A stretch of 61,607 nucleotides of DNA, the filler included, from Fonticula-like sp. SCN 57-25 (taxonomy: Eukaryota): assembly GCA_001724245.1 (NCBI GenBank). It is 7 parts of 7 records of this genome, joined end to end, with 100 filler letters (N's around TTAATTAATTAA, not from the genome) between each part and the next. Parts side by side here need not be neighbours in the genome. Positions count along the whole stretch, not along the records: positions 47,178 to 54,343 come from MEDX01000388.1; 6 more parts are not named here. One strand, written 5' to 3'. Positions 2,406-55,656 of the stretch are shown here, one piece after another. Position 1 is the first letter of the stretch; each line of letters begins with the position of its first letter. The translations under genes were made by a program, and so were the position numbers. The notes beneath the pieces are model-generated. The model saw only the letters and a list, made by a program, of their open reading frames with translations. It ran no database searches and was not told the DNA's origin.

Positions 2406-3890
2406 TCATGAGAGGGAACAGTATTTTGAGACGGCGACAAACAAAGGGAGAATGCGGTGACACGGAGACAAAAGCATGCGGAGCTCAGTTTTCAGGGCGT
2501 TGTGCGCGCCTTCAGCCCTCGACGAAGCCTCGTTGCGCAGGTGCCGAGCGTTCTTCGTCCACGCTGTCGCCCACTTCTCCTTGTAAGGCACCCACTGTTC
2601 ACAGAGATACACGACGCATTCGCCGTAGAGCGGGGAAGGGTGCGCTTGCATACGCTCGAGCATGGCGTCAAAGTCCGCCCGGGTCGAAGCGAACGCGAGG
2701 CCCTTGAAGTCCACCGTAAATGCCGCCGCGCCACCTATCTCCTCCGCGTCGTGGTCCCTCACAACGCGCTTGTAGCGCGCCTCCACATTTTTAAAAATGT
2801 GCCAAATGCAGAGCATGTGACGAGTGTCCGGAAGTACGCCGCTGAGAGCGCCCATCAACGCGAGATCACGATCAGCGATGAACACCGCCGGATGACGGAC
2901 GCCCGGCATCGCCCGGAAGCAACCCAAGGCCCACACAAAGTCGCCGCGCGTTTCGTGTCTCAGAAAGACAACAGCAGCGGTGAAAGTTGTGTTCAACGAC
3001 GTTGCTCCGACTATTTGAAAAACGGGCATGCCGTAGACGAGCGTCTTATAAGTGCAGTCGGCGAGGAACACAGAAGGAAAGCGATGCGCCAGATCGCGAC
3101 TCTGCACAGACCACACAAACATATGCGTCAGCCGTCCCTCAGCGTCCTGCTCAAACATCGGCGGCGTCGTGGGGTCCGATGCAGCGCGAAGGTCGTCCAA
3201 GAACGCTTGCGAGTTCGTGCGCCCGTTCAATCGTTGACGACGGATTTTAGCCACGGCGTTGATAACGTCCTTGTTTGTGCAAGCAATGCTCGGAAAGGCC
3301 ACGCGCAGCTGTCGATAAATCTGGGATGCAGACATGTTTGCCAACGTGCCCGCGCGAATGGTGGTCAGCTCGGCCTCGCTGAACCGTCGATTGCGCGGAT
3401 GTGCGGATGCGGCCGGAGCTGCAGGATGGCTGTGGTCGGGCACAGCTGTAGCAAGCTGCCACCGCTGCTCTCCATTCGGCTGCACGGAGCGCGTGATCAA
3501 AACTTTGTATGGGCACCCCACCATGCGAGTGCCGCGGCGTCGCACGCGGCGACCACCAGCGTCTGCGCCATCAGCACCTCATCAAGGTCGATTCGGCGGA
3601 GGAGCGCTTCCTCGATCACAAAGGAGACATGCTCCCCAAACACCAGAATTGCGAGTGCTCAAGGCAAAGCCGAGGCCGGCAGCCTGGGCGAACGCAGCCC
3701 TGCGCGCTTCCTCGAAAGACGAAAACGTGCCCTGCAAGACCGCGTTGAAGGTAGCTGGCGGCCCATCTTAAATGGCTTCGTCCTCTAAATCAAACTCCAG
3801 TTCGGCTTCAAAGTCTTGCTGAGGCTGGTGCTCTTGAGCGACGCCAGGATCACGCGGAGGCACCCCATCGGCGCCATGTGCTGACGCCAT
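2406..3890 (-). mobile_element. Mutator/MULE DDE transposase pseudogene (FAR1 DNA-binding + MULE domains)
   Basis: One frame from ATG 3890 with in-frame stops at 3768-3770 (TAA) and 3579-3584 (TGA TGA). FAR1-type FSSFEEA..GF..CDRG..GTRMVGCP..W..HSH; catalytic LADCTYKT, IADRDLAL, CIWH, RAEGAH; ends shortly after the catalytic Glu. Confidence 0.9.
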
Positions 3891-4267
3891 GGCAGAATGT
3901 CTGCTGTATCTGTGATGGTCATTAATACGTCAAAATCGCATGCGCTTCCGCAGCATGGCAAAATAGTCTCCCTCGAAGAAAAATTTTTTACTAACTTTAG
4001 CAGTTTTTTGTTGGACTGCCTGTGTGCCTCCCGCAGGCCTCCCGCGCTTGCTGGCGGATGTCGCACACGCAGACCTTTACTTCTACGGACAACAATTATA
4101 GTTTGGGCAACTCGTTTCGCGTTTTATTTGAGGGCGGTTTAAACACGGTCCGTGGTTCGGCTGACGTGCGTAGAAAAAAATTAGCTCCGGCCGCGCCCGA
4201 GTCGTCGACAACCAATTCGCTTCCACTGGAGACCACCAAACTGCTTCCAAAAGGGACAAGCAAATCG

Positions 4268-7226: not shown

Positions 7227-7326
7227 NNNNNNNNNNNNNNNNNNNNNNNNNNNNNNNNNNNNNNNNNNNNTTAATTAATTAANNNNNNNNNNNNNNNNNN
7301 NNNNNNNNNNNNNNNNNNNNNNNNNN
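7227..7326. other. Artificial contig linker; identical linkers at 20639-20738, 27940-28039, 39807-39906, 47078-47177 and 54344-54443
   Basis: N44-TTAATTAATTAA-N44 spacer with stops in all frames, repeated six times. Confidence 0.99.
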
Positions 7327-20638: not shown

Positions 20639-20802
20639 NNNNNNNNNNNNNNNNNNNNNNNNNNNNNNNNNNNNNNNNNNNNTTAATTAATTAANNNNNN
20701 NNNNNNNNNNNNNNNNNNNNNNNNNNNNNNNNNNNNNNCTCCTCCTCTCATTCGTTCCTCATTCGTAAAATATATCCTTTTCTTCGTCCATGCTCGCAAG
20801 AA

Positions 20803-27714: not shown

Positions 27715-28039
27715 TGCCAGCCGACGCCCTGGCAGCGTTGCGGTCTGTGTTAAATCCACCATAACTTCCAATCTACTCATACGAAGCAACGACGATTGGT
27801 GGTGAGTTTGACGGGGCTCAAGGTATGCAAAATATATTGCTGTACGTTTTACATGCTCAAAAGCCGTGTTCGAGCCCTTGCTGATGAATGAGATAAAAGA
27901 ATACAAAATGAAATCAAACATTACACGAGCTCTGAGACGNNNNNNNNNNNNNNNNNNNNNNNNNNNNNNNNNNNNNNNNNNNNTTAATTAATTAANNNNN
28001 NNNNNNNNNNNNNNNNNNNNNNNNNNNNNNNNNNNNNNN

Positions 28040-39007: not shown

Positions 39008-39906
39008 GCACCGCTTTTCTTTGATAGCAGAGCTTGCGTAACGTGCTGTTGTACTGTATTCAATACATTCCTTAAAACCAAATTAACACGCCCATTCATT
39101 CCATTTGTGTGACATGCGCTTTAGAGCCGGTTTATAGAGAAATGGGGACTGAAACCGTAGCATGCGTACAATCGGTCCCACTGTCTGCGGATCGACATCG
39201 GATCGCGATCTGGCCAGGCCGGGCCAAAAAGTTGCGCTCCACCGGCGCGCTTGGTCCGCCACCTCTTCCTGGACCGTGCCCCCCCCCCTGCCAGTGAGGT
39301 TGCTCTGGCGGCCCCTAGTACCGCGTCTTCGATGGCCTTCTCTGACTCGTCCCGCCCAACCCCGAAGTTGCCCGACCGTCCAATCACAGGCCGCCAAGAT
39401 CAAAATCGCATGCAAATCGCATGCAAATCGCAGGTGCGCGCGCGGGTTTTGTCAGGGTGGTGTCCTGTGTTTGTCGGGTGCTTGCCGTCGGGTACTGGGG
39501 GGAAGGTGCCGTGACGAGAGCAAGGGCTACCGAGAGAGCGAGCCTTCTTGTGGTTTGTCATTTACTTGAATCGCGTTTGAGTTGGGAAGCGAGAGATTGC
39601 CCGTTGAATTTGGCGGGGTTCCGTAGCAGGAAGCAGCATCACACCCCCTTTGTGATACTACTTTTGGAGCCTCTTTGCAAACGGTGATCTCTGGCATTTC
39701 GACTGTGTGAAATGTCAGACGATCTGGCATGGGCGCAGTACAAGCTGGCTCGGGAGACTTCGCTGAATGATGCGACGGCTGGCGAGGCTTTGGGATTGCA
39801 CTATGGNNNNNNNNNNNNNNNNNNNNNNNNNNNNNNNNNNNNNNNNNNNNTTAATTAATTAANNNNNNNNNNNNNNNNNNNNNNNNNNNNNNNNNNNNNN
39901 NNNNNN

Positions 39907-46680: not shown

Positions 46681-47177
46681 GCAAAAGAAAAGAAGAAGAT
46701 GATGAGGAAGAGGAAGAAGGGATGGCGGCAGTCGGCCGTTTGATAGCGAGTTTGCTTTTGGCCATTTTCTCCCCGCGGTTTGGGGAGCGGTTTCGGTTTT
46801 GTGTAATCACAACATACTCAGTAATATATTGGTAGTTATATGCAAAGAGGTTTGACGGGGTGAGGAAGGGAAAGGTATATTTTGGTAGAGCATACTTGCC
46901 ACCTTTATTAGCGCTTTGTTGTACCGCAGAGCGGTCCAAAGGCACCAAAATTTGCCTCACTTCATGACAGGCAACGACACAAGGTGCGTTCACCATCAAA
47001 ACACATATGATTGGACCAAAAATCCAAAGTGAACAACAGATCTTGATCACTTTGCACCTTCGTCCGCCATCCCACGCNNNNNNNNNNNNNNNNNNNNNNN
47101 NNNNNNNNNNNNNNNNNNNNNTTAATTAATTAANNNNNNNNNNNNNNNNNNNNNNNNNNNNNNNNNNNNNNNNNNNN

Positions 47178-47740
47178 TCTACAAGTCTCTGGCGTTCTAC
47201 CTCTGCGAGTCTCTGGCGTTCTGCCTCCCTCTGCTGCTGCGCCCGTTGTTCCCAGACATTCTGAGCGGGCTGCGGTTGAGGAGCTGGAGCGACGATGGCA
47301 GATTGTGTTGGCGGCCGAGGCGATGTCGCTGTAGATCTTGGCTGTGGCACCTCGGGGGCTGTCACATTCAATAGCCAACAAGGCTGACCCCTTGCGATGC
47401 ACATTCCGCAGAGCGATTGTTCGTGAGGCTTGCCATTCTGTGGCTCGCTTGATGACCGATGGCGGTCGTAGCGATCGTTGTCGTCGTTGAGCCACATCGC
47501 GAAGGGATCGCATTCTTCACCGCAATTTTTGCATTCCTGCCACCCGTCCGCATGGTTAACAAAAGCATGTGCCGACACCCACCATGATCCGCAGCTGCAC
47601 TTGAAACACCCAAAGCTCTTTCTTGGGCGCTTGAATGCGGATGCGGGATACCATTTGCCGGGCGAACTCACGGGGGGGTCAAGCCGGGCAATCCAGGCCG
47701 CATCCCGCTCCTCTTGGGTTTGCTTCTTCTTTCGCGGCAT
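47178..47740 (-). CDS. 3CxxC zinc-finger protein (ZCCHC24/ZAR1-like domain), 3'-truncated
   Basis: FG.FKC.C..W.SAHA..QECKNC..P..KPH..LCGMC..G..C, then Pro/Gln linker and coiled coil. Confidence 0.75.
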
Positions 47741-48129
47741 CGCCTCGCTTGCCGTTGCCTCACAGGCTCACACTTGACTTGGTCGGCCTGCCGCAAGAGC
47801 CGAGTGGCGATTTTGTCGCAGGACACAGAAGTCACGTTGCCACTTGCCAAACTGCCGAGTGCCGACAGCGAATCTTTCACGTGATTGGTCGAAATCGGGG
47901 ATGTTTCTGATTCCCGCCATTACTTTGCCACTACAAAAAAGCATAAGTCTAGGCTGTATTATTTTGTAGCCGAATCAGTGTTCAAAAGAGGTTTATCAAA
48001 GCATAATTGTCATGAAAGTGCATTCCATACTACAAATTAATATACAACTTGTTTGGTAAACTAGCCAAACATCACCCGAAACATCCTTTTTCCTTTCCAC
48101 AATTTGTCGCGAAACCGACAAAAATTCCC

Positions 48130-48933
48130 TCATTCATCTTGTTGTTGACTATTCCTTTCTTGCAATACTTGCTTATTCATTTCCTCCCTTCTAAACACCC
48201 CCCTCTCGTTGTAGATATCCCGTATGGACACCAAGGTCGCGGCATCGTCCGCCTTGAGCGCCGCCAGGATCTGCTGCGATTTAACGCCATCCGCCGCAAG
48301 CTTGTGCACCTTTTCGCGCTGCTCGCGCGTCATGCGGCGGTGGATGGCAAGCTCCGCCACAGATGCCGCCGGCGAGTGGTTGTGATGGCCGTTGACGAGT
48401 TGCAGCATCCACGAGCCATCGTCGCGATGCACGCCTTTCAGACGAAAGGGGCAGTTGCACTTGCGCGAAGTGGGGCGGCGGCGGCGCGTCTCGGGTGTGA
48501 GGCCGCACTTGTTGCTCACTGGACCGGACCGCGTGCAGGCAATGTAAATCGCCTTGGATTTTGCGCTCTCGATGCTCACGGCAAACTTGTGCTGCTTGGC
48601 AAAGAATTGGGCGCCGCGGATGAGGAGATCACGCGAGGCGTATTCGGTGGGAGTAAAAGAAACAGAAAAGGGCTTTTCGGAAACAGCGTCGCTTTCTTCA
48701 TCTGTAGCATCGGCTTCGGCATCACGAGCGGCATCGGCATCGGGCGCAGGGACATCGGCAGTCGTCAAGCGGATATCGGAGTTGGCCGCACGGAATCCTT
48801 CATTGAGCGCACGGACATCGGCCGCGCGGGAGGCAACTACAACAAAATCAGCAACACACATTGCTTGTTTTCTGGCCGTACCCGCAACGAGAGCCCGCAC
48901 GAGATTCTCCACAGTGAGCGCTTCGTCCGCCAT
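48130..48933 (-). CDS. FAR1/AFT-type (WRKY-GCM1 fold) DNA-binding protein derived from a MULE transposase N-terminus
   Basis: FA..HKFAV..IACTRSG..RRR..SRKCNCPF..W..HNH..HRR..I..L..RDIYN; no DDE domain; uninterrupted ORF. Confidence 0.78.
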   Translation of the reverse strand: MADEALTVENLVRALVAGTARKQAMCVADFVVVASRAADVRALNEGFRAANSDIRLTTADVPAPDADAARDAEADATDEESDAVSEKPFSVSFTPTEYASRDLLIRGAQFFAKQHKFAVSIESAKSKAIYIACTRSGPVSNKCGLTPETRRRRPTSRKCNCPFRLKGVHRDDGSWMLQLVNGHHNHSPAASVAELAIHRRMTREQREKVHKLAADGVKSQQILAALKADDAATLVSIRDIYNERGVFRREEMNKQVLQERNSQQQDE

Positions 48934-49209
48934 GATGTCGTTGACGAGCTTCAAAGATTCCCGCCAAAATGATACTCGACGCTGATTGGTCCACTCGTTC
49001 GCGGCAAATTTTTAACAGTTTTGTGCATGTTTTGCAGGTCAAATACTGTTCCATATGCGCTTTTAACGTGTGCCCTTCACGTATATACACACAAGTGGCA
49101 ATATACATACGTAGAAATATAGTTCAAAAGGGCAATACTTGTAGTACTTTTCATTAAGATACAGATGCCCCTAACAGGCATTCATCAGGACATTACAAAG
49201 ACAAAACTT

Positions 49210-51405
49210 TTAATTGAGCAGCTTCAACTTGAACCTGAGCGCAATTGCAGCTCCAATAAACACAAACGCGACCATTACCGCCGTCATTGCCCAATTCAAC
49301 ACGTGGCGCTCATCCGCCCCCGGGTAGATCAGCTCGAGGTAAAAATTGCCCGTCGGGTACCTGCACACCTGATCGCTCTCCCTACAATTGAACACAAGGC
49401 CCTCAAACTCATTCACGACGACCAATTCAGACGAGTATTTCGCCACAGACACGTAGGAAAGCGTGCTAAAGAACGGCGGCATCGATTCGACGCTCCGCAA
49501 AAATCCGCTGCCGAGCATCGCCAAGATCGAGATCGCGAGCGATCCCATGCTGTTTGCCAAATTCATATCGAAAAAGAGACCAAGCTAGCACAAAAAAAAG
49601 TTTAGACACGAAATTAAACACGTAATAATGAAATAAAACAAGCATAAACTATGAAATTGAATATGAAAACAAACAAAAAATTCGTACCATAAGGACACCC
49701 AAGAGTTCGCCCCAGATATGTAAAAGGACCATGACGCCCCAAAAGGAAAAAATGTGCGCCGCGCCCGTTTGCAGGCCAAGTTGAAAGTACGTAATGAGAA
49801 GGAAAACGGTGGCGGCGATGAGCGACGTCGGCAGCATGTGGGCAAGGTAGGCGAGCATGAGAGTGAAAGAGTTGTAGGATTCGTCGCGGCGCTCGCGGAA
49901 GAAAAGGTCGCGGTGTTCAGGGACTATGATGTGTCAGCAAAGAATAGTAAAGTAAAGTAAAGTAAAGTAAAGTAAAGTAAAGTAAAGTAGCAAAAATGTG
50001 CCAAAAATGAGCCAAAAGTGATCCAAAAGCAACTAAACTATACTAAAAAGACCCCAAAAACCTCCCAAAAACCTCCCAAAATAACGTACAAAGAGCCAAT
50101 GAATTCAACATTCCGATAAACATTGCACAACTAACACTCTCAAACAAAAACCCCGTCCTATTCTGCACCGACGACTGCTCCAACCCCAGCGAAATTATAT
50201 ACGCCAGCATGATCAGCCCAAACATTCCCAACTGCATTGTCCTATCAAAAATGGCGCTCGGGTCGCGCGCCATATTCTTCATCATCCTCGCGTAGAGCGT
50301 CCCGAACGCGCTCAACATTCCCGGCGGATCGCGCTTGGCGAGCGGCAGCGGATCGTCCTTGCCGTGCGCGTCCATGCTGTCCTGCAGCGCGGCGAACGGC
50401 GCCGACGCGTGGTACGAGGCCACAAGTGAGACGAGGCGCTTGAGCGTGTCGCGCTGAACGCGCTCACTACGCTTGTCAATGCTCACGACGTCAACTGAAG
50501 CGGAAAACACGAAAAAAATGAGCTACAGGGCTGTGGCAGGCGTGTTAGAGGCGTACTGTAGTGGTCGAGCGGGCTGGCGTAGGCGTCGCAGGGGAAGCCG
50601 ATGCTCTCAAAGTAGGGGACGACGCCTTGGGCGGTGCCAAAGTAGACGCACTCGCCTTGTGACATGAGCATCATCACATCGAGCAGCTCAAAGATGTCGG
50701 AGCGCGGCTGATGCACGGTGAAGACGATGGTGCGGCCCTGATCTGCGCTGAGGGATCGCAGCATCTGGACGATGCTGTGTGCGGTAAAGCTGTCGAGGCC
50801 GGTCGTGGGCTCGTCTAGGAATAGAACGTGGGGCTGGCTGAGGAGCTGCAGGCCAATGGAGACGCGGCGTTTTTCGCCGCCGCTCAGGCCGCGGCGAAAG
50901 GTGCCGCCAACACGGCGATCGGCGACATGGCGGAGGCCGAGGGAGGCGATCGTCGCCGAGACGCGGTCGGACATTTCGGCGGATGAGAGGGAGCTGGGGA
51001 GGCGAAGGCGCGCAGAGTAGAGGAGCGTCTCGCGGACAGACAGATTGGGGAGAAGGCGGTCATCCTGCATCACATACCCTGAAACGAGTGTCAGCAATGA
51101 CGCATCAACAACAAATTTTAATAGAACAAACCGGTATTGAGACGCAAATAGTCGCTCGAGGCGCGCTCGCCATTGAGGCTGACGATGCCCTCGATGCCGT
51201 CGGACGTCTGACCGGCAAGAATGTCCAGCAGGGTGGTCTTGCCAGATCCGGACGAGCCGAGGATCGCGCAGCACTGGCCCGGCGTTACAAGCCCGGAAAT
51301 CTTGTTCAGGATGTACTTGCGGCCGTCGGCAGACCGGACAGAGTACGAAAGATCGCGAAACATGAGCGTCGCGCCCGGCGACCGCTCGCCGCCATCCGCG
51401 ATCAT
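49210..51405 (-). CDS. ABCG5: ABCG half transporter, ABCG5-like
   Basis: GSSGSGKTTLLD, LSGGEKRRVSI, LDEPTTGLD, HQPRSDIF, QNRTG, GMLNS, GSGFLR..MP..KYSSE..VNEF.GL.FNC. Confidence 0.8.
49946..49989. repeat. (AGTAA)n pentanucleotide microsatellite
   Basis: Seen directly in an ABCG intron. Confidence 0.95.
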
Positions 51406-51793
51406 CTGCGACAAGTGCACGTGATTCTGGGTCACGTGACGAGCGTAAAAGCCGGTTTCTATACGTCTATGGTTCTAGGTTCCAATAAGAAAATTGTTTA
51501 GTGTACTCTTTTTGACGCTCATTTATGGACGCAAACACCACACATAACTTTATTCTTTTCTTTTATGTATTTCGCGAGCGAGATGGAATCATGCGGTCCA
51601 TCCTTTGTCCTTTGACCTCCATGACGAAATTTGGCGGATGTAACTGACCAATGGCATAGCTTCCACGATCACGCAGGAGGCACTACCAATTTCCTTTTAT
51701 GGTGCATTGTTATCTCCCCTGATTGGTCAGTTCATCCCTTACATTTCACATTCAGCTGCCACGGCGGGAACGCCCAGCATCTTGGCCGGCAGC
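51406..51793. promoter_or_regulatory. Bidirectional promoter between the two ABCG genes
   Basis: 388 bp between the ATGs; E-boxes CACGTG 51418 and GTCACGTGAC 51431-51440; several CCAAT/ATTGG boxes at about 51650-51726. Confidence 0.7.
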
Positions 51794-54338
51794 ATGATGG
51801 GTAAGAGCGTTCAGTACGAGAAGACCGAGCGCACGCCGCTGCTGGACAGCGACGCGCACTCGTCTGTCCGCATGGAAGCCGAGGCGGACGTTGTCCCCGT
51901 GTTTTCGCGCAATGAGCGCCCTCTCGATGTGACTGTCAAGAACCTGAGCTACTGGGTCCGGCCGAGCCTCGATGCCGACTGGGAGTCGCTCAACCAGGCG
52001 GCCAAGTGCCAGCTGCCCAAGACGCGCCTGCTCCTCGACAATGTCAACATCCACGTACAGGCGGGCCAGCTGCTCGCCGTGCTCGGCAGTTCCGGGTCGG
52101 GCAAGACCACGTTGCTCGATGTCATGGCGTACAGACACGAGGGCGGCCAGATTACGGGCGATGTCCTATTCAACGGCGAGCCCCGCACGGCGCAAAAGCT
52201 CAAGGTACGCTTGCCACTTTATTAACATTGTTTAATTACGGTTTGGCTTACTTTTGCCTCTCTTTGCATAGGAATCGGGTGGCTACGTCCAGCAGGAGGA
52301 TCGCCTTTTGCCCAACCTGACTGTCCTCGAGACGCTCACCTTTGTCGCCCGCCTCAAGATGCCCGCGAGTCTCCCCCTTTCCGCCAAGGAGGCGCGCGTG
52401 CGCGAGGTGATTGGCGAGCTCGGCCTGATCCACGTGGAAAACTCGCCCATCGGCGGCGCATCGCTCCGCGGCCTCAGCGGCGGCGAGCGTCGCCGCGTCA
52501 GCATCGCGATGCAGCTGCTCCTCGACCCGAGCATCCTTTTCCTCGACGAGCCGACGAGCGGCCTCGACAGCTTCACCGCCAACAACGTCGTGGCGACCCT
52601 GCAGAGTCTCGCGAGATCGAACCGCACCATCATCACGACGATCCACTCGCCGAGGAGCGATGTCGTCAAGATGTTTGACCTCGTCCTGATCCTTTCGCAA
52701 GGTGCGTCGGAAATAACCTGTTTTTGTTGCCTATTTAAACCTGGTGCTTACACGTGGCCGTTTGAATAGGCCGGACGGTTTACTTTGGCCCCAGCGAGGG
52801 CATGGTGTCGTACTTTGCCAATGTCGGCTACCCGTGCCCCATGTACACCAACCCATGCGACTTTTGCCGTACGCCATTTTGATTGGACGAGAAAGGAAAA
52901 CTGATTACGTGGCGATAGTTGATTTGGCCACGATTGACTTTAGGTCGGCGGAGCGCGAGCAGCAGTCGCGCAAGATCGTCGACCAGCTCGTCAGCCGTAC
53001 GCATGATTTGATATGTTTTTGGATGCTTTTTGTGATGTTATTTGTGGTGTATTTTGTGTGATTTTGGATGACTTTTGGATGATTTTGTGTGGTTTTGGAT
53101 GAATTTTGCATCATTTTTGCATCATTTTTGCATTATTTTTGCATGATTTTGCATCTTTTTACATCATTTTCGCCACTTTTTCTCATCATTTTCTCATTTT
53201 CTCATCAATTTCCCTTAGACTATTCTGCCACGCCGTACACGCCGCCTCTGCTTTCCTCGCCCTCCACGGACCTTTTAAAGCAGAGCCCTTCCGTCAACAG
53301 CGACCGCGCCGGCTTCTTCCTTCAATTCTACATCCTCCTCATCCGCACGTGGCGCAATCGCCTTCTCGGCCGCACTGCCCTTTTCGTCGACCTTGTGCAG
53401 GCGCTCGCGATGGCGCTCGTCGTCGGCGCAGTTTTTCTGAATTTGGGCCATGATCAGGTGTCGGTGCAGGACAGATATGGTCTGTTTTACATTATCAGTA
53501 CAATGTATCCGTTCATGCTCGTGCTAAGCACGGTTTCTAAACGTACGAAAAATCGATATTTATGTTTGTTTTTGTGAGAAAAAGTGTGAAAAATGCTCTT
53601 TTTATATATGGTTTATGCATGTTTTTGATATTTTTACCGTGTTTTCGAGCATTTTTATGTGTCGATGAAAGAGTCAATTCTTTTCTTCTTATCTTCCCAT
53701 CTTCTCACGTGACTAACACCACGATAGTGCATCAGGACCGACCCTCTTTCTATACCGAGCGCGAAGACGGCCTCTACAATCTTTTACCCTTCTTCTTTGC
53801 CAAGCAAATCGGCGAACTTCCCTTTGACATTTTCTTTTCCCTCGTCTATTCCCTCCCTATCTATTTCATGTCTCAACTTGACATGACACTTGACAAGATT
53901 CTCATTTTTAACGGCATTGTTTTCCTCATCCTCTTCACAGCGCGCTCGATGGCGCTCGCCGTCGGCGCGGCAATCCCGCGCTTCCAACAAGCCGCCTTTA
54001 CCGCCAATTTCATGTTTACACTTTTCTTGCTGCCATGTGGCTTCATTGTCAACCTCGATACGATATGGCCAGGTGTCGCGTGGACGGCCGACATTTCGTT
54101 TGTCGCGTTCAGTTTTCAGTCGCTGTCGATCAATGAGTTTGTGGGCGTCGAATTTAATTGCCCTAATTTGGGTAACCAGACGCTGTGTCCGATCACAGAG
54201 GGGACGCAGGCGCTCGAGGCGTTTGCGCTGGAGGATAAGAGTATTGAGTGGAGCGCGATTTATATGTCGATCGTGGCGATCGTGTTTAGGACGTTTTATT
54301 ATTTTGCAATGAGGTTTATCGATCAGAGGCCGCGTTAA
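51794..54338 (+). CDS. ABCG8: ABCG half transporter, ABCG8-like
   Basis: GSSGSGKT, LLPNLTV.ETLTF, GLSGGERRRVSI, DEPTSGLDSFTA.N, GYPCP.Y.NP.DF, PF..VL..VSK, FFFAK.IGELP, GFIVNL..IW..W..ISF. Confidence 0.8.
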
Positions 54339-54443
54339 GCATTNNNNNNNNNNNNNNNNNNNNNNNNNNNNNNNNNNNNNNNNNNNNTTAATTAATTAAN
54401 NNNNNNNNNNNNNNNNNNNNNNNNNNNNNNNNNNNNNNNNNNN

Positions 54444-55656
54444 TCTTCTTAGACTTGCGGCTACCCTGTTCCTCCTCCTCTTCTTCGCTGTCACTCTGGC
54501 GATGCCGAACGCCCCGATCGTCCATTTGCACATCTCCGTCGTCCTCGTCGTTCTGATCCTCCTCGGCACCGTCATCGTTCAGCAAGTATTCAAGATCCCA
54601 GAACTTGACAGTATCGTCGTGAGAACAGCTCGCCATCAATTTCTGGTCCGAAGTAACGCGGATTCGCTCCACAGGGAAACCATCATGGTCACCGATAACA
54701 CCGGCCAGGCTGTTCGGATGGATAGTGACAACCCTAGGAGACGATTAAAAAAATGAGTTCACTCGATCGCCCAGTGCTCCACAATGCAGCGTACCGGATA
54801 AAGCCATCGGACGAACCAGTGCAAAGAAGCTCCTCACCGTCGGGTGAATTGACAACGGTCATCGCGTCAATCGAGTTGGGATGCCCAGGGAAGCGGTCCG
54901 AGATATCACCCCAAAGTCCCCAAGACCAGATATTGAGCACGCCCTCCTGCGTGCCCACAACGACCTTCTTACCACCTTTCACGAGGGCAATAGAAAGCAA
55001 TTCATCATCCTGATTGTCGGACTTGTGCACCTCCTTATGCAACCGAATATCGTACACTGCGAGAGTGCCGTCACCACTGCAACAAAACGCAGTAAGCAAA
55101 CAAGGCAGCAATAGCAATATCGCGCACCTGGCAGACAAAAGTATGTTTTGCTCCTCGTTGAACGCAAGTTGCGAAACATAGTCGTCCTGTGTGGCATACT
55201 CGCGGATCGACTTTTGTTGACGGAGGTCCCAAAGCTTGACAGTACCCCCGTCATCACCCGTGGCGATCGAGTCCGGCCCAAGCCGAAGGATTGTATTGAT
55301 GGGGTCTCCATGCGCCTTGGCTTGCTTGAAGAAAACGTCGCCTGTCTCGAGGTTCACAGCCTGGATCGACTTGTCGCTTGAAGCGGTGAACAGCGCTGCC
55401 AGATTCATAGTTATGGTAAGCAAGAGTGTGCAAAAGCCACCAAACACGCACCCTTTCCATTGTCGGAGAACAGCAAGGCACGGCAAGACTTTTTGTGGTG
55501 AATCAAGTGGTGCAGCTGCTTGTTCCCTGTGTCGTGGTCGACCGCGTGCACGATCACATCTCCCGTGATGAGCCCACTTGCGACAATGCGTTCGGTGGGG
55601 TGAAACGCAACCTCAAACACATGGCTATCAAAATTCAACGTGGGCGGCGCCTGCAT
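54444..55656 (-). CDS. WDR55: WD repeat protein 55 / JIP5 (rRNA processing), 3'-truncated
   Basis: FHP..SGLITG, HKKSCR, ATGDDGGTVKLWDLR, SGDGTL, DDELLS, WGDISDRFPGHP.SID, SCSHD. Confidence 0.9.

Follow-up and report, generated by a model that had tools for sequence, protein, structure and literature searches.

Closest described systems and the locus

ABCG5/ABCG8 is the textbook asymmetric heterodimer among ATP-binding cassette (ABC) transporters, and its locus is the one behind sitosterolemia. Here we analyzed a stretch of 61,607 nucleotides from Fonticula-like sp. SCN 57-25 (GCA_001724245.1), referred to below as the window, which carries two head-to-head ABCG half-transporter genes, winG5 and winG8. 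We consider it fairly probable that these genes are orthologues of animal ABCG5 and ABCG8, divergently transcribed, whose products form a two-site heterodimeric exporter with sterol as the likely cargo.

The closest described system is human ABCG5/ABCG8 (PDB 5DO7, 7JR7, 7R87-7R8B, 8CUB), which like the window pair is composed of two reverse-topology half transporters encoded by head-to-head genes. Human ABCG5 and ABCG8 are the best membrane-domain matches of winG5 and winG8, respectively, and fall in the same tree clades; the loop cysteines are conserved in G5 and an N-x-T sequon is aligned in G8. The two systems differ in several respects: one ATP site is degenerate in human (G8 Walker A GSSGCGRAS, G5 signature ISTGE) whereas both are canonical in the window pair, their identity is about 30-35%, the window genes have short introns, and the function of the window pair is a predicted one. 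The head-to-head arrangement is described for human, Drosophila, Daphnia and Tetranychus in the accessible part of PMC3724490; the arthropod pairs (CG11069/CG31121 in Drosophila) resemble the window pair in this respect, according to that description.

Other relatives share fewer features. Among named proteins, those closest to winG8 are Fonticula alba H696_02791 and Capsaspora owczarzaki CAOG_06121; both fall in the clade containing animal ABCG8, and they are annotated as hypothetical or ABC transporter domain-containing proteins. The full-size fungal and amoebozoan proteins of the YOL075C/Cdr6 (Roa1) group fuse a G8-type half, at the N terminus, to a G5-type half, both nucleotide-binding domains (NBD) being mostly canonical, in one polypeptide of about 1300 amino acids (aa), whereas the window has two divergent genes on opposite strands, neither of which encodes a single polypeptide with two alternating NBD and transmembrane domains (TMD). 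ABCG1, ABCG2, plant ABCG16/25 and Pdr5/Cdr1 have the same ABCG fold and NBD-then-TMD order as the window proteins, but their membrane-domain scores are 17-54 bits against 58-114, and those sampled fall outside the G5/G8 superclade. The head-to-head arrangement of G5 and G8 in animals is already known, and the interesting part of the present case is its wider evolutionary reading. Non-animal G5/G8 pairs or a G8-G5 fusion were not found described in the literature searched, most subscription journals and supplements being outside the search; a prior description is possible.

Gene structure of the pair

The original prediction had claimed two divergently transcribed ABCG half transporters with start codons 388 bp apart, ABCG5-type membrane motifs on the minus strand and ABCG8-type motifs on the plus strand. 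The open reading frame (ORF) listing and the sequence bear out the layout, and all the motifs were recovered in the model translations. The start codons are at 51405 (winG5) and 51794 (winG8), and the outer limits of the locus correspond to the two stop codons:

49210-51405, minus strand: winG5, ABCG5-type half-transporter gene, 603 aa predicted, 5 exons
51405-51132, 51078-50557, 50494-50090, 49923-49688 and 49584-49210 (with stop), minus strand: exons of winG5, best open GT..AG model, tblastn guide P0286
51406-51793, no strand: 388-bp shared intergenic region, putative bidirectional promoter (from the sequence and independent bridging contigs)
51794-54338, plus strand: winG8, ABCG8-type half-transporter gene, 650 aa predicted, 6 exons
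51794-52204, 52272-52701, 52770-52868, 52919-52996, 53219-53542 and 53728-54338 (with stop), plus strand: exons of winG8, best open GT..AG model, tblastn guides P0003, P0002 and P0004
49495-49512, minus strand: GSGFLR of winG5
49384-49422, minus strand: VVVNEFEGLVFNC of winG5
53793-53822, plus strand: FFAKQIGELP of winG8
54039-54056, plus strand: GFIVNL of winG8
54174-54182, plus strand: N-x-T sequon NQT of winG8, last extracellular loop, aligned with NLT of human ABCG8

The human NLT site is presumably glycosylated. Gene models were obtained by tblastn with metagenomic, Fonticula and Capsaspora guides, followed by an exhaustive search of frame-keeping GT..AG combinations. The introns are predictions, since no RNA run exists among the sequencing runs holding this stretch; the least certain is the one between exons 4 and 5 of winG8 (52997-53218), because the linker encoded there is poorly conserved. 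They are short (four in winG5 and five in winG8, 50-222 nt) and show a strong extended consensus at the donor site, with GTACG in seven of the nine predictions. Both genes encode one NBD followed by one ABC2_membrane domain in about 600-700 aa, as in ABCG half transporters: Pfam pieces of ABC_tran and ABC2_membrane fall in the exons of each, and a crude hydropathy scan gives about six hydrophobic segments per C-terminal half. No further ABCG gene was found anywhere in the window.

Similarity to solved structures and phylogeny

Exon queries were scored in bits against all solved structures. The last exon of winG8 scored 114 with human ABCG8, against 54 with ABCG1, 51 with ABCG2 and 20 with ABCG5; the last exon of winG5 scored 57.6 with human ABCG5, the next being ABCG1 (16.8). 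For the middle NBD exon of winG8 the values were 119 (ABCG8) and 108 (ABCG2). The membrane-domain scores of ABCG1 and ABCG2 are thus far below those of G5 and G8, and on structure scores the window proteins fall outside the ABCG1/2/4/White type, the corresponding clade test being incomplete as the trees held no named animal members of that type.

An exhaustive HMMER search with the last exon of winG8 returned 2409 proteins at E<=0.001, of which only 8 at E<=1e-30. The nearest were its own fragment, Fonticula alba H696_02791 (51% identity), the metagenomic protein P0003 (667 aa, 47%) and Capsaspora CAOG_06121 (46%); Pigoraptor (45%), Filamoeba (39%) and then animal ABCG8 (Tubulanus, Lymnaea, Nucella, lizards) came further away, the membrane domains of the window proteins being about 30-35% identical to animal G8. 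Word-indexed homology searches gave no match among 472 candidates for the membrane exon of winG8, and three matches, itself included, for the membrane part of P0286, a metagenomic G5-type protein. The NBD-exon search listed full-size proteins only, because two NBDs add up in score. In a protein-atlas search, which gives a lead only, features matched plant ABCG fragments and the top structure row was a chordate ABCG5 cluster.

For the trees, full-size proteins were split at the second Walker A, and a 117-row overview tree preceded the main set of 55 rows and 643 columns (14 G5-type, 23 G8-type and 18 other ABCGs). This set was analyzed with a quick IQ-TREE run under the posterior mean site frequency (PMSF) C20 model, with SH-like approximate likelihood ratio supports (SH-aLRT), and with iqtree2 under LG+F+G4, with 1000 ultrafast bootstraps (UFBoot) and SH-aLRT. 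Under PMSF C20 the supports were 100 for G5-type, 94 for G8-type and 95 for G5 and G8 together versus the rest. In this tree winG5 grouped with P0286 (95), then with the halves of a snail ABCG5 (100), and winG8 grouped with Fonticula (91), then with P0003 (99) and with animal ABCG8 (96). Under LG+F+G4 (SH-aLRT/UFBoot) the same groupings were found: winG5 with P0286 97.8/100, with the snail added 99.9/100, and the G5-type split 99.8/100; G8-type 90.7/97, winG8 with Fonticula 96.1/100, and 97.8/97 for the clade with four animal ABCG8. This last clade has nine rows, among them winG8, Fonticula, P0003, Capsaspora and the ABCG8 of Tubulanus, Zootoca, Nucella and Lymnaea. Each window protein is thus found in a clade holding its animal counterpart, with one animal reference in the case of winG5; the proposal that the pair belongs to the G5 and G8 clades is upheld. 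The core G5 and G8 clades are kept in NBD-only and TMD-only FastTrees (0.95 and 0.87 for the winG8 clade), while the wider G5-type and G8-type groupings appear in the TMD-only FastTree and not in the NBD-only one.

The two genes could also have arisen from one ABCG gene by a lineage-specific inverted duplication. Grouping of the two proteins with each other, and placement outside the G5 and G8 clades, were the outcomes that would have refuted the original prediction; neither was obtained. Their NBD motifs are very similar and two intron positions coincide, phase included: 50495-50556 with 52869-52918, and 49924-50089 with 53543-53727. These introns (two of four in winG5, two of five in winG8) sit after an NPxD-type motif and just ahead of the FPEHRD/LHQDRP segment, and their coincidence suggests that they are older than the G5/G8 duplication. 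The proteins are however 36% identical and sit in separate clades (99.8/100), and forcing them to be sisters costs 271.7 log-likelihood units and is rejected (p-AU 0.005, p-KH and p-SH 0; constrained search halted after 70 iterations). We give such a duplication a negligible probability.

Two side observations concern the G8-type sequences. The motif NPCD(F/Y) is common to winG8, Fonticula, P0003, Capsaspora, Tubulanus and Lymnaea, most other G8-type rows having NPAD; it possibly marks the core G8 clade. A G8-type protein (P0021) is also present in the transcriptome of Rhodelphis marinus, a lineage outside Amorphea, which could mean that the origin is older still, or that the transcriptome contains prey sequences.

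Physical adjacency of the two genes

The window consists of separate contigs strung together by six linkers of the form N44-TTAATTAATTAA-N44, so that genes across a linker need not be genomic neighbours:

7227-7326, 20639-20738, 27940-28039, 39807-39906, 47078-47177 and 54344-54443, no strand: linkers

A mis-join of metagenome-derived contigs such as these, or contamination by a small animal, would give the pair a trivial origin. The pair nevertheless lies entirely inside the piece 47178-54343, and both start codons are bridged by contigs from two runs of two studies (X1, 49997-52056; X3, 49997-52507), which differ from the window by 0-2 positions; the adjacency of winG5 and winG8 is therefore not an assembly join. 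As to contamination, the animal ABCG8 clade (98.8/100 under LG+F+G4) excludes winG8, which is placed beside Fonticula. Either artefact is very improbable. Two more runs (X4, X5) gave contigs that were short or diverged, and nothing was drawn from them. The runs holding the stretch come from bioreactor and wastewater metagenomes. The organism had been called unicellular; this goes beyond what such DNA shows; in one gene tree, Fonticula alba is the named species closest to it.

Public contigs break at an AAAGT pentanucleotide microsatellite (49934-49996) located in the third intron of winG5. Summed contig depth rises about ten-fold at 52459-52629 in all four runs, which is not a copy-number signal because this conserved signature/Walker B stretch attracts ABC-gene contigs of other organisms.

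ATP sites

The motifs of the two NBDs were located on model translations and alignments:

51235-51258, minus strand: Walker A GSSGSGKT of winG5, canonical
50864-50887, minus strand: signature LSGGEKRR of winG5, canonical (ISTGE in human ABCG5)
50792-50827, minus strand: Walker B VLFLDEPTTGLD of winG5, with the catalytic Glu
50699-50719, minus strand: H-loop TVHQPRS of winG5
52085-52108, plus strand: Walker A GSSGSGKT of winG8, canonical (GSSGCGRAS in human ABCG8)
52473-52496, plus strand: signature LSGGERRR of winG8
52533-52568, plus strand: Walker B ILFLDEPTSGLD of winG8
52638-52658, plus strand: H-loop TIHSPRS of winG8

The Walker A and LSGGE motifs claimed for both genes are thus present, and the degenerate human motifs that had been cited for comparison were seen in the alignments. 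The asymmetry of the ATP sites of human ABCG5/ABCG8 is stated in the accessible part of PMC8544900. Since Walker A, signature, Walker B-Glu and H-loop are canonical in both composite sites of the window pair, hydrolysis is expected at each of the two; in the human pair, by contrast, the site that combines the Walker A of G8 with the signature of G5 is degenerate.

The original prediction of two intact sites holds for the window pair, but such sites are not special to it. Walker A, signature and Walker B are canonical in nearly all of the 40 aligned G5-type and G8-type rows, including winG5, winG8, both genes of a second pair described below, Fonticula, Capsaspora and the ABCG8 of Tubulanus, Nucella and Lymnaea; the ISGGE signature of the snail ABCG5 was counted as canonical. 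In this alignment the lizard ABCG8 only is degenerate (Walker A ESSACGKTS, Walker B region ILILNDPT). The combination of a non-consensus G8 Walker A with a non-consensus G5 signature, absent from winG5/winG8, is also missing from three of the four animal ABCG8 rows and from the snail ABCG5, so that the degenerate site marks the vertebrate proteins sampled and not the family. Intact ATP sites in both halves are the common state, and probably the ancestral one, with nothing peculiar to this organism. The data offer a natural "symmetric" version of the transporter, in which one could ask why a dead site is tolerated or needed in vertebrates.

A second non-animal pair

Scanning metagenomes with P0003 as query yielded an 8084-nt contig (L001) with the same divergent layout:

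L001 1819-3795, minus strand: P0286, G5-type gene, intronless, 658 aa
L001 4054-6057, plus strand: P0003, G8-type gene, intronless, 667 aa

The two genes are head-to-head, with 258 bp between their start codons compared with 388 bp in the window. At full length P0286 scored 331 bits with human ABCG5 (next family ABCG16, 256) and P0003 scored 377 bits with ABCG8 (next Pdr5, 282). The proteins are 45-47% identical to those of the window and P0003 is placed outside the group of winG8 and Fonticula in the trees, which indicates that the two organisms are far apart. A microbial eukaryote and a distant second one thus carry the two-gene module with ATP sites intact in each half, and the proposed pre-animal age of the arrangement now has a second non-animal case behind it, itself deeply diverged. 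This suggests that the G5/G8 duplication and partnership predate animals, as probably does the shared-promoter layout. Other contigs of the scan were set aside: L003 has the same layout but is a strain variant of L001 (98.9% DNA identity) and not an independent case, and L004-L011 carry other ABC genes that match by the NBD only.

Full-size relatives and probable partnership of the two halves

Among the full-size relatives listed, which probably belong to the YOL075C group, judging by source names, 117 of 120 could be split into halves. All but two of these (115 of 117, fungal and amoebozoan) join a G8-type N half to a G5-type C half, the N half scoring higher with G8-type than with G5-type membrane domains (medians 107 and 54) and the C half higher with the G5-type than with the G8-type ones (94 and 66). 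The trees agree with this, N halves falling in the G8-type clade and C halves in the G5-type clade; half-size dictyostelid proteins are basal in both groups, the one from Synstelium joining the N halves at 99.9/100 and the one from Acytostelium the C halves at 95/99. The reverse order was found once: P0169 of Cavostelium apophysatum (1332 aa) begins with the G5-type half and ends with the G8-type one, and looks like an independent fusion. The remaining protein, the snail P0168, joins two G5-type halves.

That two parts have been fused independently, and in both orders, is a classic sign that they act as one machine. Together with the divergent layout, which the window shares with L001 and with animals, these fusions argue for a heterodimer, in which winG5 and winG8, each an NBD followed by a six-helix membrane domain, would assemble as one exporter. 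One could suppose instead that the G5-type and G8-type orthologues are each homodimeric and that their layout is a historical leftover or the product of a compact genome. ABCG1 and ABCG2 do work as homodimers, as in PDB entries with two identical chains, and head-to-head pairs were said by the original prediction to be common in this genome. This supposition is improbable in view of the 115 fusions of unlike halves against a single one of like halves, and of a layout maintained between genomes whose proteins are 45-47% identical as well as in animals (PMC3724490, accessible part).

The sequences also tie the YOL075C/Cdr6 group to the G5/G8 lineage, as a fusion of both halves. The literature on this group (PMC2848647, PMC6647914 and PMC8211738, in their accessible parts) describes it as an early-branching cluster of unknown function, not tied to G5/G8.

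Shared intergenic region

The 388 bases between the start codons contain the following elements:

51642-51652 and 51722-51732, no strand: arms of a perfect 11-nt inverted repeat, AACTGACCAAT / ATTGGTCAGTT
51431-51440, no strand: palindromic E-box GTCACGTGAC, 26 bp upstream of the winG5 start codon

The arms of the repeat are two CCAAT-box-like sites in opposite orientations, which may be NF-Y-type sites. The 9-mer CTGACCAAT occurs three times in the window for 0.34 expected, a count reached in none of 100 shuffles. Both genes would be divergently transcribed from this region with its inverted CCAAT-type sites, and may be co-regulated. The E-box was rejected as a signal: its single match is equalled or exceeded in 7 of 100 shuffles. 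The intergenic region of L001 has one ATTGG site and, at 3870-3915, four tandem copies of the 11-nt unit GCACGAAACAA; no obvious similarity was seen between the intergenic regions of L001 and the window.

Cargo and evolutionary reading

Several observations weigh against orthology with the animal sterol exporter as proposed here. The NBD exon of winG5 scores best with ABCG8 (190), ahead of ABCG2 (173) and ABCG5 (143), so that the case for G5 is made by its membrane domain and by the trees on whole proteins; in winG8, the Walker-A exon scores higher with Pdr5 (56.5) and ABCG16 than with ABCG8 (43.3). The broad G8-type clade is moderately supported (94 under PMSF C20; 90.7/97 under LG+F+G4) and is unrecovered in the NBD-only tree. 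The sole animal G5 reference is the snail P0168 (Batillaria attramentaria, 1324 aa), whose two G5-type halves are possibly a merged annotation. The trees were built without named ABCG1/2/4/White proteins and without S. cerevisiae YOL075C, the nameable outgroup rows being protist ABCGs (Capsaspora CAOG_06421, Ancoracysta, Acrasis, Andalucia and a cercozoan). Finally, fungal Cdr6/Roa1 has been linked to drug susceptibility and not to sterol export (accessible parts of PMC6647914 and PMC8211738). NBD exons are less diagnostic, probably because the human G5 and G8 NBDs carry derived degenerate motifs, and the C half of P0168 scores 453 bits with human ABCG5 versus 280 with ABCG8. In the tree the two halves of P0168 lie close together; the protein is either a genuine G5-G5 fusion or two tandem duplicates that annotation has merged.

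The cargo is the least certain step of the mechanism. By orthology, the exported molecule would most likely be a sterol or a similar neutral lipid. The same orthologous heterodimer could carry something else (xenobiotics, phospholipid or another lipid), sterol export being then a later animal specialisation. The unknown function or drug susceptibility reported for the fungal YOL075C/Cdr6 relatives in the three papers cited above, in their accessible parts, and the low membrane-domain identity to animal G8 (about 30-35%) both fit such a cargo. We nevertheless find this option rather unlikely, though deserving of attention: both tree and scores place the sterol exporters nearest among characterised proteins, and the sequence gives no pointer to another cargo.

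With the sterol-type heterodimer retained as the preferred reading, the evidence seems to us evenly balanced on a more ambitious, joint proposal. According to it, the heterodimer and its divergent shared-promoter layout would be at least as old as the common ancestor of animals and the Fonticula-like protists, and the two half types would go back to the ancestor shared with Amoebozoa; the ancestral machine would have had two working sites, the degenerate site appearing late, on the way to vertebrates; and YOL075C/Cdr6 would be this machine with G8 and G5 covalently fused. If this is true, ABCG5/ABCG8 is among the oldest conserved bidirectional gene pairs known, and the YOL075C/Cdr6 fusion points to a role of that group in lipid or sterol export.

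Neighbouring genes

An ORF of 267 aa located beside winG5 (48130-48933, minus strand) has a weak match to the FAR1 DNA-binding domain, 23.6 bits for a Pfam cut-off of 28.1, and may be a transposase-derived gene. The next contig piece carries a WDR55-type WD40 gene (54734-55408, minus strand), with a Pfam WDR55 score of 203.7 bits for a cut-off of 200.

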